Assembly: GCA_019058275.1 (NCBI GenBank)
Contig: JAHLVW010000043.1
Location: forward strand, 1 to 48,509
Source: Candidatus Heimdallarchaeota archaeon
Lineage (GTDB): Archaea > Asgardarchaeota > Heimdallarchaeia > JABLTI01
Length of the DNA stretch: 48,509 nt
Direction: 5' to 3'
The notes beneath the pieces were generated by a model, which worked only from the letters and a program-made list of their open reading frames with translations, was not told the DNA's origin and did not search any database. The first letter of the stretch is position 1, and every line of letters starts with the position of its first letter. This document shows, piece after piece, positions 1,309 to 48,509 of this stretch. The position numbers and the translations under genes were made by a program.

Positions 1309-2691
1309 CTAGGCGTTCCATTCCTTTAGAATTGAGCTTGAAACTATTACATCTAAGCAAGGTAAGCTCGCCATTTGATCAACTATTGGTTGATACCCTC
1401 GTCCTATTGTTCGAGAACGTAAGATAATCATCAAGTCATATTTTCCAGTAATTGCAGACACCTTTTCCACACTAGATATACCCTTAATTTTAGCTATATC
1501 ACAGACTTCACCAGCTTTGATTTTTGCTAAAATCATTATCTTTACTTCACTTAGTGAAAGTCCAACAATTCCACTGAACACCAGTATTACACCAATTCCC
1601 CTAAGCATCCAAATTAGCCAAGCTAACTCTCCTGTGACAGCAAGGAAATATTCAGGCCAAATTAGACTGCATATAACTGTTATAGGAATACCTACAATAA
1701 CAGAAACGGATGATAAGGAATTAACAATTGACATTTTCCCCATGGATAATGCTCTTACATAAAAAATCCTAGAAATAAAGACCAAAAGCATCGATAAAGC
1801 AATTGGAAATAAGGCTTTCTGAAATGTTTGTTTGAATAGCAACCAACCAGCTCCATCCATGAATGGTAGAGAGAAAATTATCGTAAATACAGCCATAAAT
1901 AGTAAAGTCCAGAGTCTAACATTCGTGGAGTCAAGGGTTCTTCCTTTTTGATCTTTAGTGCTTATCGCTTTCTTTTGGAAAATTACATAGATCGCTGCAC
2001 TGACATTTAAAACTAGAAATACTAGTATCAAATTAAGCCAATTCAATGAACCAGTATTTGTAAAATCAATAGCTGCTAATATTACCCCTAAAACAATCAT
2101 AATAATTGATTGAATTTCTACTGCAGCTGGTGCTGATTTCTCAATAATCAAATCGCCAATTAATAGATAAACAACAACAAATTGAGATATAGGAAGAAAG
2201 ACAGAGATGTCCATTCTTTTTATGAGGATAAAATAAACAACAGTGTTTATTCCTGAAAATAATCCAGAGAAACCTAACCAGAGAAACATCTTTTTTGATG
2301 GAATACGTATACCATTAAATTGTGGATCGATCCACTGCCCAAGAAATGAATACTTTCGCTTTGTTTTCTTAGTTTCTGACTTCGTTAAAGATAGCTGAGC
2401 ATTATCACCATCTTGACTGTCTATTCGTTTTTTCCTAATTTTTTCCAAATATTGCTCAAATGGTTTTTTGCTAATGGGAATCCATAAAATTAGTACAAAT
2501 AAAATACTTACAATAATACCAATAATCATTGATTGAATAGCAAAAGCATATTCATTTGATATTATAGCTTCACTTGTGTAAGTATCTATAGCTATCCATA
2601 TTGAGCCTACAATACCAGAGAGAACTGCAAGTATTATGAAAGTATATTTTCTGCTGATTTTGCTTATTGGTCTTGTAGTTCGATCTCCCAT
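1309..2691 (-). CDS. EamA/DMT-family transporter fused to a C-terminal Lrp/AsnC ligand-binding (RAM) domain
   Basis: About 10 hydrophobic helices in two EamA-like halves; C-terminus IKGISSVEKVSAITGKYDLMIIL matches the AsnC ligand-binding signature (V..V..vTG.yD). Confidence 0.8.
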   Translation of the reverse strand: MGDRTTRPISKISRKYTFIILAVLSGIVGSIWIAIDTYTSEAIISNEYAFAIQSMIIGIIVSILFVLILWIPISKKPFEQYLEKIRKKRIDSQDGDNAQLSLTKSETKKTKRKYSFLGQWIDPQFNGIRIPSKKMFLWLGFSGLFSGINTVVYFILIKRMDISVFLPISQFVVVYLLIGDLIIEKSAPAAVEIQSIIMIVLGVILAAIDFTNTGSLNWLNLILVFLVLNVSAAIYVIFQKKAISTKDQKGRTLDSTNVRLWTLLFMAVFTIIFSLPFMDGAGWLLFKQTFQKALFPIALSMLLVFISRIFYVRALSMGKMSIVNSLSSVSVIVGIPITVICSLIWPEYFLAVTGELAWLIWMLRGIGVILVFSGIVGLSLSEVKIMILAKIKAGEVCDIAKIKGISSVEKVSAITGKYDLMIILRSRTIGRGYQPIVDQMASLPCLDVIVSSSILKEWNA

Positions 2692-2720
2692 CAGATTGTT
2701 ACTCTCCAGAATATTATATA

Positions 2721-2990
2721 TCAGAATTCCTTTTGTATTATAGATGTAGTTGTTTCTAAAATGCCTTCAATCAGATGAATTTCTTGAGTGCGATTATACA
2801 TTTCATCCATTGTATCAGTTTCCACACGAACTATTATATCATACTCACCTGTGATTACTGCCACAGAAGTTACGTTAGGAATCTGTTTCAGCTTAGCTAA
2901 TACTTCATTTGTTTTTCCAAGTTCAACTGACACGAGGATGTAAGCCTTATTTTTATCTGAGTTTTCATCTGTCAATTTGACATCCCTCAT
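2721..2990 (-). CDS. Stand-alone Lrp/AsnC ligand-binding (RAM) domain protein, no HTH
   Basis: KAYILVSVELG...LKQIPNVTSVAVITGEYDIIVRVE...IEGILETTTSI; 89 aa. Confidence 0.9.
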   Translation of the reverse strand: MRDVKLTDENSDKNKAYILVSVELGKTNEVLAKLKQIPNVTSVAVITGEYDIIVRVETDTMDEMYNRTQEIHLIEGILETTTSIIQKEF

Positions 2991-3188
2991 TTTGCTTTTC
3001 TCAACATACTAACTTTATGAATACTTCGATTACGTCTAAATCTGGCAACCTTAGATTTTCTAATTTTGTAATTTAATAGCTGTATTAAAATTTCCATTGA
3101 TACTCTACTAACCCTTGTTGAGCATTATACGCATTTTTAGAGTTCGAGAAATACTTATTATTAAAGAGGATATTCTCATTGTGATTAT

Positions 3189-3680
3189 TTGGAAGGGTGT
3201 GTCGACTCCAAATTGGCATTAGAAACAGTTGAAGAACTAATAATATTCATTGATTTAGATAACTTCAAGGAAATATCAGAAAAGCAAGGTTGGGCTACGT
3301 ATAAGCCAAATGAAGTAACTGGTGCATTAACGCATTTAGTTTCTGACTTTGTTCGCAAGCACTTAGGTGAAGTTATTTATGGTTTAGATGAAAAGAGAGG
3401 TACAGAGGAATGTATGCTAAGGTTGACTGGTGCGTTATCACATAATGTAATAGTCAATGATTTGGAATTTATTCTAAGTAAAATTCAAAACATTGGATTA
3501 GAATGTGGTTGTGACGTTTCTGTTAGCATTGGAGTGGCACGAGGACCATATACTCCTATCAGACCTACAGGACCTTATCAATGGTCGAAAAGATTATTTA
3601 AAGGACAAGCACAAAGACTTGCTCATAAAGCTCTAAAACGAGCTAAAAGACAAGGTGGAAATAAAATAATCTTCTTATAA
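3189..3680 (+). CDS. Non-canonical GGDEF-like nucleotidyl cyclase domain protein
   Basis: FIDLDNFKEI (DxDxFK), RGTEE at the GGDEF position, VSIGVA, AHKALKRAKRQGGNKI (AD.ALY.AK..G.N consensus). Confidence 0.75.
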   Translation: MEGCVDSKLALETVEELIIFIDLDNFKEISEKQGWATYKPNEVTGALTHLVSDFVRKHLGEVIYGLDEKRGTEECMLRLTGALSHNVIVNDLEFILSKIQNIGLECGCDVSVSIGVARGPYTPIRPTGPYQWSKRLFKGQAQRLAHKALKRAKRQGGNKIIFL

Positions 3681-3709
3681 TTTTGAAGATAACTAAGGTC
3701 TGTATAATT

Positions 3710-4348
3710 ATGGATCAATCAGTTGTTAAGAGAAGATCAAATCAAAAATCAGAAAATGAATTTCTTGTTGATATGCATATACATACCAATTATTCTTTTG
3801 ATAGTAATTTAATGGTTGAAGAAACACTATCAGAACTTGTTGACGTTGTTGATGCAATCGTAATAACTGATCATAATATTATTCCTGATTTACTAAGTGT
3901 AACTTTACAAAGCTATGAAGAGAAATTTCAAATTAGAGTATTTACTTCTTCTGTTGAAATCTCAACTAGACAAGGGGATATTTTAGCTTATGGTATTTCC
4001 GCAGTTCCTTCCACTAATCTTACTCCTGAAGAAATCATAGAAATTATTCATAAAGATGGTGGAATAGCTATTGCTGCACATCCATTTACAATGCTGGGCT
4101 TAGGAGAAGAAATCTACAACTTGAATCTAGATGCAATCGAAGTAAATGGTTCTAGATCAAAAAGAGCTAATGACCAAGCTAAGGAAGCAGCTGAGTCTAT
4201 GGGATTGCCTTGTATAGGTGGTAGTGATTCCCATACCATACATGCAATTGGAAGTTATGCAACTAAATTCAAATTACAAATCAAAACTTTAGATGATATT
4301 ATCGAACAAATAAAGAAGAAAAACTGTTTGCCAATATTCCTACGTTGA
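3710..4348 (+). CDS. PHP-domain metal-dependent phosphoesterase (ATG at 3710 preferred over TTG at 3683)
   Basis: DMHIHTNYSFDS, ITDHN, VEIST, AAHPF, IEVNG, GGSDSH motifs. Confidence 0.92.
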   Translation: MDQSVVKRRSNQKSENEFLVDMHIHTNYSFDSNLMVEETLSELVDVVDAIVITDHNIIPDLLSVTLQSYEEKFQIRVFTSSVEISTRQGDILAYGISAVPSTNLTPEEIIEIIHKDGGIAIAAHPFTMLGLGEEIYNLNLDAIEVNGSRSKRANDQAKEAAESMGLPCIGGSDSHTIHAIGSYATKFKLQIKTLDDIIEQIKKKNCLPIFLR

Positions 4349-4363: not shown

Positions 4364-5512
4364 TCATTCTTTTATTATCATCTTAGTAATCATTTCATCT
4401 GTAAATTTACTTCTTTTTTCTTGATGATCCGATACAAATTGCTTGACTTTCTCAGCTAGAATTTTTTTACATTGACCACATAGTAATTTTCCAGCAAGAC
4501 AGTTTGAACGCATTTCATTGACTTTATTATCATCTGGTTCAAATAGATAATATTCATACCAATAAATATTGCACTTATCTGGTTCTCCACCTAATTCGCT
4601 TTGCTCTTCAACAGTAGCTCTTCCTCCAGTATATGAACGCATTACTTTCTTCTTTGCATTGTTTGGAGTATCAGTTGTAAATATACAAGAATCAGGTTCA
4701 GAAGCTGACATTTTGCCTCCTTCAGCAAGTCCAGGGAAGAATTTACAATGTATAGCAGCTGGTTTGTAATAACCTAATTTTGGGGCAACATCTCGAGTGA
4801 TTCGCCAGTAGGGATCTTGATCAATCGCTGCTGGAATAAGTATAGGGACATTAGATCCTTTTAATTCCGAAGGGAGAAAGCAAGGCATAGCTTGAATTGA
4901 AGGATAAAAAATCATACCAATATTCGATTCATTTACAAATCCAAATACAGCTTTAGCTATTGAAAAGGTAACTCGATTTGCTACTTCGACAGCAATTTTG
5001 TACATTGTTGATGTTAATTGTGAATCGAAAATAAAGTGAGTTTTTTTTGGATCAAAACCCACAGCCATAACATCTTTGGCATTTTCATATGCGAAATCTC
5101 TTGTTTCTTGAAATGATAGTTTCTGACTAAACAGGAATTTTTCATCATCTGTCATTTGGAAATATAATTCTACATCAAAAATATCTTGCAACCATTTTGT
5201 GAATATCCAAGGAACTAAATGACCTAAATGAGTATGTCCTGAGGGTCCTCTTCCGGTATAAAGTGAAAATTTAACTCCTTTCTCAAGCATTTTTAGAATC
5301 CAATCAAAATCACGATGACTAAAGAATAGACCTCTTCTAAGTAAGAGATGTAGATTACCTTCACTATATTTGTCTAATGCGCTTATTTCTTTCTCTGAAA
5401 GTAGTGTTGTACCAAATTTTTTTACTAGTTTTTTATAATCAATAGTTCCACTAACTTCCCAAGGAGTTACGACCATTTCATTTGATTTTCGGTCTTTTTT
5501 TTCTTTGAACAT
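4364..5512 (-). CDS. trpS: Tryptophanyl-tRNA synthetase, archaeal/eukaryotic type
   Basis: VTPWEV, YTGRGPSGHTHLGH, QMTDDEKFL, AIDQDPYWR, KMSAS; start taken at ATG 5512. Confidence 0.97.
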   Translation of the reverse strand: MFKEKKDRKSNEMVVTPWEVSGTIDYKKLVKKFGTTLLSEKEISALDKYSEGNLHLLLRRGLFFSHRDFDWILKMLEKGVKFSLYTGRGPSGHTHLGHLVPWIFTKWLQDIFDVELYFQMTDDEKFLFSQKLSFQETRDFAYENAKDVMAVGFDPKKTHFIFDSQLTSTMYKIAVEVANRVTFSIAKAVFGFVNESNIGMIFYPSIQAMPCFLPSELKGSNVPILIPAAIDQDPYWRITRDVAPKLGYYKPAAIHCKFFPGLAEGGKMSASEPDSCIFTTDTPNNAKKKVMRSYTGGRATVEEQSELGGEPDKCNIYWYEYYLFEPDDNKVNEMRSNCLAGKLLCGQCKKILAEKVKQFVSDHQEKRSKFTDEMITKMIIKE

Positions 5513-5651
5513 ATAATAACCTTCTAACAATGAATAGATAACTAGATTAGATATCATTCAAAGATTTATCTGATTTTAAAAAACCTTTTATCTTCTGGAA
5601 AACTTCGATTTTTGAATGAAAGAAAAGCGAAAAAGAACTGAATTAGTAAGA

Positions 5652-48249: not shown

Positions 48250-48509
48250 TTATTTCCTTTTTTTCATTACATTACAATGAGTTGAGTATTTACTCCAAAT
48301 CTTTGTCCCAAGTTTTTTTCATATATAATAGTTCATCTTTTTTCATTTGCGAGTTGGTAAGGTTATAATTATAAAAAGTTGATCTAGTTCCTTTGAAGGT
48401 TTTAATGGTAATTTAATTGCTTTGGAAGTTGAATATTTGAAATAGATTTTTGAATAATTATTCTCTAATTGCTCCATTAAGCTTGTCGAATGTTTATACT
48501 TCATTGTTA

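Follow-up and report, generated by a model that had tools for sequence, protein, structure and literature searches.

Two separate two-gene units at a divergent locus of a Heimdallarchaeota contig: a probable GGDEF-superfamily nucleotidyl enzyme with a PHP phosphoesterase, and a putative RAM-gated transporter

We describe a locus at positions 1309-4348 of contig JAHLVW010000043.1 (assembly GCA_019058275.1, Candidatus Heimdallarchaeota archaeon). The contig was analysed from position 1 to position 48,509; this whole stretch of 48,509 nucleotides, with a G+C content of about 32%, is called the window below. The window's list of open reading frames (ORFs) places four genes at the locus, as two divergent pairs. 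We consider it fairly probable that these pairs are two separate units. One of them (unit A) would consist of a palm-fold nucleotidyl enzyme and a PHP phosphoesterase, the other (unit B) of a DMT-type transporter gated by a RAM domain, together with a free RAM protein. Unit A has recognizable homology to GGDEF domains, conserved residues, and a pairing of its two genes that is itself conserved and in one case has become a fusion. In unit B the folds, the paralogy of the two RAM domains and the adjacency of the genes are equally plain. The named relatives are Asgard archaea, mostly labelled Heimdallarchaeota.

A preliminary description, made from the letters of the sequence, had joined the four genes in a single circuit in which a nucleotide is made, broken, sensed and responded to. 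Its four ORFs, domain calls and divergent layout are borne out, and the intergenic region that it put at roughly 200 bp measures 222 bp. The single circuit fares differently, as set out below. The features in question are as follows.

1309..2691, minus strand: DMT/EamA-fold transporter with a C-terminal RAM domain, 460 aa (unit B; identified by Pfam, an AlphaFold2 model, Foldseek and homologues)
2721..2990, minus strand: stand-alone RAM-domain protein, 89 aa, no helix-turn-helix (HTH) domain (unit B; PF01037, E 1.2e-15)
2991..3212, no strand: divergent AT-rich intergenic region of 222 bp between units A and B (from the sequence)
3213..3680, plus strand: sensor-less, divergent GGDEF-superfamily palm protein, 155 aa from TTG 3213; the listed ORF, 3189-3680, has 163 aa (unit A)
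3710..4348, plus strand: PHP-family metal phosphoesterase; the 221-aa ORF opens at TTG 3683 (3683-4348), with a probable start at ATG 3710 (unit A)

Host families (f), genomes (G), loci (L) and contigs (C) are referred to by our own labels where they have to be told apart. Family f1 comprises the genus of the window and its close relatives.

The GGDEF-like protein

The GGDEF-like protein stays below the cut-offs of the standard models. It scores 15.9 bits (E 0.011) with Pfam GGDEF PF00990, whose cut-off is 23.8, and 22.8 bits (E 6e-5) with TIGR00254, whose cut-off is 37.4. A phmmer search of the PDB with the single sequence gave marginal matches only, and a profile search was required. When the profile of the family is aligned to that of canonical GGDEF domains, the relationship is clear (hhalign 98.4%, E 1e-14, 131 columns), with GTEE corresponding to GGEE, PN to GD and AKKxGGN to AKxxGxN. 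The preliminary description had spoken of an RGTEE signature. The acidic motif stands, and its register has to be moved by one residue: it is G-T-E-E-C (C or A in the family) that aligns to G-G-[D/E]-E-F.

Other residues stand in the family where GGDEF has its second Gly and its Phe; the acidic pair and the DxD are kept. Down to 26% identity the family shows no change in DxD, PN, a Thr, a Gly, G-T-E or the Lys of AKKxGGN, and at least 90% of its members have the second E of GTEE. The two residues that specify guanine have both changed. The Asn of FKxxND is Ser or variable, and the Asp of GHxxGD is an invariant Asn that lies inside an inserted YxPN loop. Six further residues are inserted before the signature hairpin. 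No I-site RxxD was seen in register, and no sensor, receptor, dimerisation or nucleic-acid-binding module is present in the 155 residues. Because both guanine-reading positions are altered, the substrate or product is probably not that of a canonical cyclic di-GMP (c-di-GMP) synthase.

With bacterial diguanylate cyclases (PF00990; DosC, PleD, DgcB) the protein shares the fold, the Asp of DxDxFK, the acidic pair of the hairpin, the SxGxA strand and AKxxGxN. It differs from them in its sub-cut-off scores, its GTEEC hairpin with the insertion, the replacement of the guanine Asn and Asp, the absence of a sensor and its archaeal host. By its profile alignment it is nonetheless a genuine, if divergent, homologue of GGDEF domains.

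The AlphaFold2 model (pLDDT 87) has the palm fold common to GGDEF domains, class III nucleotidyl cyclases and mCpol, and Foldseek matches it to the GGDEF domain of DosC at 4.6e-7. The structural Z-scores (VIA) are 13.5 for the mCpol protein OptS (9mnr; root-mean-square deviation (rmsd) 2.5, 111 residues), 13.1 for the GGDEF domain of DgcB and 12.9 for adenylyl cyclase. These three are tied within 1, and the fold does not discriminate between them.

The top Z-score belongs to an antiviral protein, and this raises the question of whether unit A, alone or together with the membrane protein, could serve against viruses in the manner of Panoptes or of another nucleotide-based system, with a minimal polymerase of the Cas10 type at its core. 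The mCpol/Cas10 palm of Panoptes OptS (9mnr/9pd0) is likewise a minimal stand-alone palm cyclase of similar size, and mCpol clusters come up in an Atlas feature search (0.92). Against this, the Z-score is tied with those of GGDEF domains and adenylyl cyclases. Sequence profiles favour GGDEF, and the protein carries the C-terminal helix motif of the GGDEF type, which sets it apart from mCpol. It also has neither an effector partner nor a defence context: no CARF, SAVED or 2TM effector is conserved alongside the enzyme, and none of the four proteins has a match in PADLOC, whose 2023 library is older than Panoptes. The gene is single-copy, stands among core genes and groups by host family in distinct clades with good support, which suggests vertical descent. 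We regard an antiviral role as exceedingly improbable.

A different relative suggested by structure is GTP cyclohydrolase III (GCH III), with Z 11.4. It is not favoured, since the rmsd is 6.8 and a Pfam scan of the protein at E <= 1 gave no GCH_III match. The same scan gave no match to an mCpol family such as PF18182.

According to the literature, archaea have almost no GGDEF domains, and c-di-GMP signalling is likewise nearly absent from them or has not been established (PMC5847659, PMC8646023, PMC2904730). The genome of the window, which is 93% complete, has no Pfam PF00990 match at E <= 0.01, no EAL domain (PF00563) and no PilZ domain (PF07238), HD-GYP not having been searched for.

The family itself is small: of 1.84 billion entries searched, 48 representatives match it at E <= 1e-3. 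Among the 400 Asgard genomes surveyed, the gene occurs in 30, in 11 of 85 genera and always as a single copy. Sister clusters of the family are found in Thermoproteota.

Pairing with the PHP phosphoesterase

The protein encoded downstream passes the cut-off of PHP_C (PF13263; 63.8 bits, E 1e-17, cut-off 21.3) and falls below that of the N-terminal PHP model (PF02811; 21.8 bits, cut-off 26.4). An alignment of 12 orthologues shows the metal-ligand motifs DH, E, H and DxH to be invariant, and HxH to be present in at least 90%, missing only where N-termini are cut. Other matches in NCBIfam are weak and lie far under their cut-offs; they include models of RNase RNM and of pAp phosphatase.

Of 22 loci that we examined in detail, 12 (in families f1, f19 and f20) have a PHP gene immediately downstream of the GGDEF-like gene, in the same orientation. 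A thirteenth case is the f5 locus (G047, L037:5191-7136). There a single gene separates PHP from the enzyme gene. PHP belongs to an operon on the other strand, which diverges from the GGDEF-like gene, and the start of PHP is overlapped by a gene for a Pol-beta-type nucleotidyltransferase (NTP_transf_2). A further arrangement is seen in L054 (L054:4782-6237, a contig of GCA_041890195.1), where the GGDEF-like domain is of the RGTEQ type with 26% identity. It is fused to a Toprim domain in a protein of 292 aa, which is preceded by a DUF167/YggU gene and followed by an overlapping PHP gene. The 13 loci cover five flanking contexts, and L054 comes in addition to these. The genes that flank the pair differ among f1, f5, f19, f20 and L054, and the pair alone is kept.

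The two proteins can also be joined. P0084 is a fusion of 355 aa in which PHP is linked to a C-terminal half that is GGDEF-like (hhalign 96.8%). Toprim and PHP are the only fusion partners seen among members of the family.

Could the two genes be neighbours merely because gene order has been inherited, with no functional link between them? PHP genes without the enzyme and enzymes without PHP both occur in many lineages, as detailed below. In a maximum-likelihood tree the PHP-adjacent enzymes fall into two separately supported clades (100/100 and 96/95), which counts in favour of unit A. The backbone of this tree is unresolved, and the pair could for this reason descend from a single ancient arrangement. 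A prediction of the complex of PHP with the GGDEF-like protein gave ipSAE values of 0.09 and 0.20 against a mark of 0.32; this is no usable answer, and it is evidence neither way. What speaks against inheritance alone is that the pair survives when everything around it changes, that its genes are tightly spaced or overlapping, and that a PHP::GGDEF-like fusion protein exists. On balance we find inheritance of gene order alone quite unlikely.

Accepting unit A as a functional pair, we have to set several observations against it, besides the unresolved backbone. At least seven f20 genomes keep a PHP gene that scores like the linked copies and have no GGDEF-like match. In two f20 genomes, G275 and G161, the order of genes around PHP and L35Ae is intact and the GGDEF-like gene is cleanly absent, with about 380 bp left between the upstream gene and PHP in G275. 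The reverse is seen in f14, f8, f16 and f32, where the enzyme has no PHP gene nearby, and in Thermoproteota, where none of 37 loci has PHP within 5 kb of the enzyme. The P0084 fusion comes from a single contig of 1.1 kb; its motif is degenerate (GPNE) and its DxD half is unaligned. Finally, there are about five PHP paralogues per genome.

The last point also affects how co-occurrence can be read. PHP proteins are expanded across Asgard archaea (275 of the 400 genomes). The window's own genome has about five PHP + PHP_C paralogues, for example at C2:71628-72206 and C101:4032-4607, and the one on C2 scores 199 bits with the profile of GGDEF-linked PHPs. With some five paralogues per genome and a profile built from linked copies, a test of co-occurrence is confounded.

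The GGDEF-like and PHP genes, then, probably form a unit, and a facultative one in which the pairing is not obligatory. They are probably co-transcribed. The half of the earlier circuit in which a nucleotide is made and broken survives as a conserved gene pair (f1, f5, f19, f20, L054 and one fusion) and loses the idea of an obligatory coupling. One genome, G274 (L053:7971-8306; L063:274-849; contig C11), retains a remnant of the enzyme, 111 aa long and without its N-terminal half, 13 kb from PHP after a rearrangement.

Among known systems the nearest parallels are the pairs of a synthase and a hydrolase: GGDEF with EAL or HD-GYP, DAC with GdpP, and Cas10 with ring nucleases. In these, too, an enzyme that forms a nucleotide is coupled to a metal phosphoesterase; in unit A the coupling is genetic, the synthase is a putative one, and the two are once fused. 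The GPNE motif of P0084 resembles the degenerate regulatory synthase domain of many GGDEF-EAL proteins. Unlike in the known pairs, the hydrolase here has the PHP fold, and to our knowledge PHP-fold enzymes are not established erasers of cyclic dinucleotides.

Two units rather than one circuit

If all four genes made one circuit, both RAM domains would sense the product of the enzyme and gate the EamA transporter. Several observations are favourable to such an arrangement. In six further genomes of the same genus the RAM/EamA-RAM cassette stands directly beside the GGDEF-like gene, across the divergent region, as it does in the window. The two RAM domains are paralogous, and the structures most similar to the transporter include carriers of nucleotides and nucleotide sugars.

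Comparison of related genomes points the other way. Three genomes of the same genus, whose enzymes are 83-85% identical to that of the window, have no cassette, and FtsX lies directly beside the GGDEF-like gene. In G082, also of this genus, a gene for a 434-aa LVIVD-repeat protein (L048:8641-9945) is inserted between the GGDEF-like and RAM genes, which marks the junction of the two units as a variable spot. In the sister genomes G084 and G081 the RAM + EamA-RAM pair is on contigs other than that of the GGDEF-like gene. At loci from metagenomes and metagenome-assembled genomes (MAGs) where the enzyme is 63% and 70% identical, EamA-RAM or both RAM genes have been lost and PHP has been retained.

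At greater distances the two units occur apart. In Heimdall AB_125 and in a complete Thorarchaeote genome (L066, L067), the free RAM gene adjoins an EamA-RAM gene whose product is 34-36% identical to the window's transporter, and there is no GGDEF-like or PHP gene within 4 kb of this pair. EamA-RAM is present in 140 of the 400 Asgard genomes and is common in f3, f12, f24, f25 and f31; it is absent from all genomes of f20 (0/135), f19 (0/14), f14 (0/6) and f16 (0/2). Its genomes overlap the 30 with a GGDEF-like gene only in f1 and in one unlinked case, G001. About 130 genomes have the RAM + EamA-RAM pair without the enzyme, and families f14, f16, f19, f20, f5 and f32 have the enzyme without the pair.

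Because the presence of the cassette varies within the genus, because it relocates, and because the phyletic patterns barely overlap, units A and B are, on the evidence of gene order, separate and neighbours only in family f1. The sensing and responding half of the earlier circuit is not linked to the other half. The preliminary description had itself named the lack of linkage in related genomes as the result that would count against its circuit, and this is what the gene neighbourhoods gave. A 2010 review adds that every ligand identified for an RAM domain of the Lrp type was an amino acid (PMC2995911). We judge the single circuit to be very improbable. Keeping unit B apart from unit A should avoid experiments built on a circuit that lacks support from comparative genomics.

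A putative RAM-gated transporter

The free RAM protein matches PF01037 with 57.6 bits (E 1.2e-15, cut-off 25). RAM-type models are the only ones that match it, and it has no HTH, in agreement with the earlier call of an HTH-less Lrp/AsnC ligand-binding protein. Among proteins of solved structure it comes closest to PHS023 and DM1 (1.6e-9), both stand-alone RAM proteins; in its length of 89 aa and its architecture it resembles DM1, PHS023 and STS042.

The transporter was said to be an EamA protein carrying the same domain at its C-terminus, and the folds agree. The AlphaFold2 model (pLDDT 77.7) has about ten transmembrane (TM) helices followed by a beta-alpha-beta-beta-alpha-beta domain at residues 383-455. 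Foldseek matches the membrane part to DMT transporters (CST 6i1z at 1.2e-5, Vrg4, SLC35B1, YddG 5i20 at 3.8e-4; TM-score by target 0.65-0.73) and the tail to Lrp/AsnC RAM structures. Between this tail and the free RAM protein the identity is 33% (BLAST, E 4e-8). Homologues of the transporter carry both PF00892 and PF01037.

Two things count against this assignment, and one against the cargo that we favour for it. The window's transporter itself misses the Pfam cut-off for EamA (22.6 bits, E 1.4e-4, cut-off 28.2), and its residues 400-456 miss that for AsnC_trans_reg (17.2 bits, E 4.9e-3, cut-off 25). The top matches of the DMT fold are transporters of nucleotide sugars and nucleotides, and a nucleotide-related cargo is accordingly a possibility. 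On the supporting side, the neighbourhoods of the RAM + EamA-RAM pair in L066 and L067 are rich in genes of amino-acid metabolism.

Amino acids are ligands of stand-alone RAM proteins, which assemble with full-length Lrp proteins into hetero-octamers; DM1 reportedly responds to 2-oxoglutarate as well (PMC2995911). With such ligands and assemblies known, and with the unlinked distribution of the pair, the simplest reading is a metabolite-gated DMT exporter with the free RAM protein as co-subunit. Unit B is most likely an independent exporter of amino acids or other metabolites, in which the ligand-dependent assembly of fused and free RAM domains would open or close the transporter. Fusion of the RAM domain to the transporter implies that control is allosteric rather than transcriptional.

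A genetic pairing of Lrp with EamA has a precedent in Pseudomonas aeruginosa, where an Lrp-type protein reportedly controls an EamA transporter (PA2577/PA2576, PMC8707732). The theme is shared; here the RAM domain is fused to the transporter itself. Our literature search found no paper on a RAM domain fused to an EamA transporter. Unit B is a second and independent object of interest, a DMT transporter that is putatively gated by RAM directly and is widespread in Asgard archaea.

What unit A might do

Several suggestions can be made regarding the function of unit A. Most likely it is an active palm enzyme that uses nucleoside triphosphates (NTPs), with PHP hydrolysing its product or a by-product. 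Nucleotidyl transfer from an NTP would depend on the Asp of DxDxFK, which binds metal, and on the acidic pair of the hairpin. Recognition of the base would be relaxed, or directed to a base other than guanine. The substrate of PHP would be what the enzyme makes or else a by-product, for instance a nucleoside bisphosphate or a linear di- or oligonucleotide.

One consideration tells against activity: cyclases can become inactive through changes such as those seen here at the second Gly and at the Phe of GGDEF (Galperin 2005, PMC1183210). Catalysis by the family, the identity of its nucleotide and any role in signalling are what we infer. Being small, soluble and sensor-less, with intact catalytic residues and a hydrolase conserved at its side, the protein offers a convenient way to learn by biochemistry whether archaea employ this fold for a nucleotide signal or for another purpose.

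A similar family has been described before. MK0296 and APE1864 were listed as truncated GGDEF sequences (Galperin 2005, PMC1183210). Anantharaman, Iyer and Aravind (2010) described archaeal relatives of this type as a small stand-alone family with three acidic palm residues and no fusions to signalling domains, and predicted them to be active and unlikely to signal (PMC2904730). Our GGDEF-like family fits this description, being stand-alone and having the three acidic palm residues, and it too has a branch in Thermoproteota (Desulfurococcales); the two are likened by description alone. No named Aeropyrum or Methanopyrus protein was among the matches in our homology search of the family, the named matches being MAGs of Asgard archaea and Thermoproteota only. 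A term search of Anantharaman et al. 2010 gave no occurrence of 'PHP' (PMC2904730).

The prediction made for those relatives favours another suggestion, that the GGDEF-like protein does housekeeping work as a nucleotidyltransferase or in nucleotide metabolism and does not make a messenger. It might add short runs of nucleotides, without a template, to the ends of RNA or tRNA, or act like GCH III, and PHP would be an end-processing nuclease or phosphatase. This would suit the neighbours of the gene, which are informational or core genes (TrpRS, ArcS-like TGT + DUF5591, L35Ae, RadA, Cdc6, FtsZ, TBP), as well as its single copy and its lack of a receptor domain or sensor. The Toprim fusion found in one member hints at a role related to nucleic acids. 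The weak sub-cut-off matches of PHP to RNase RNM and pAp phosphatase point the same way, and GCH III is approached both by the structural Z and by the Atlas feature search, which leads to GCH_III. Against a housekeeping role, 155 residues hold no nucleic-acid-binding module, sequence profiles favour GGDEF over GCH_III or polymerase, and the gene is lost often (retained in 30 of 400 genomes and deleted from conserved gene order in f20), which would be unusual for a core function. We think a housekeeping role unlikely.

A bolder suggestion, which we put forward as unlikely, is that a second messenger is produced by the GTEE-type enzymes found in Asgard archaea and Thermoproteota, in the form of a non-canonical (di)nucleotide, cyclic or linear. 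Its erasers would be PHP in Asgard archaea and possibly a calcineurin-like phosphoesterase in Desulfurococcales. If this is correct, archaea would have their first native signalling pathway of the GGDEF superfamily, located in the lineage closest to eukaryotes.

Other contexts of the GGDEF-like gene

The Thermoproteota loci (L072-L108, L055) are mostly from Desulfurococcales, Acidilobaceae and Pyrodictiaceae. They were collected with a subgroup alignment and one pattern, YGLD[WHP][DEK]RGT, and are not a census. Genes found nearby encode TBP (22/38), a calcineurin-like phosphoesterase (18/38) and a radical-SAM protein (15/38). The calcineurin-like enzyme could take the place that PHP has in Asgard archaea, without being homologous to it. 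The trio of enzyme, TBP and calcineurin-like phosphoesterase holds together through local inversions.

At loci of f14 and f8 (L038:6361-8441, L049, L052, L036) the enzyme gene overlaps, by about 4-13 nt, the 3' end of a gene for a TGT + DUF5591 protein of 534-540 aa. FtsZ is nearby and PHP is not. We take the TGT + DUF5591 domain pair to be the architecture of ArcS (archaeosine synthase). The overlap suggests that in these families the GGDEF-like gene is co-transcribed with a tRNA-modification gene. In f16 the neighbours of the enzyme are RadA and Cdc6.

Gene starts and flanking genes

The remaining features of the locus are a possible Shine-Dalgarno (SD) sequence and the two flanking genes.

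3192-3200, plus strand: SD-like GGAAGGGTG, 12 nt upstream of TTG 3213
2-1303: FtsX/MacB-type permease, C-terminal part (about 1000 aa in relatives), one flank of the locus
4364-5557: tryptophanyl-tRNA synthetase (TrpRS), the other flank

The real start of the GGDEF-like protein is almost certainly TTG 3213, since nearly all homologues are 155 aa long and begin with MALETVEE, as the product from this codon does, and since GGAAGGGTG lies 12 nt upstream. For PHP, the alignment of orthologues and the sequence make ATG 3710 the likely start, 29 nt past the stop codon of the GGDEF-like gene. The RAM gene lies 29 bp upstream of the transporter gene on the same strand. The FtsX/MacB-type permease gene is the left neighbour of the locus and is kept in this position throughout family f1.

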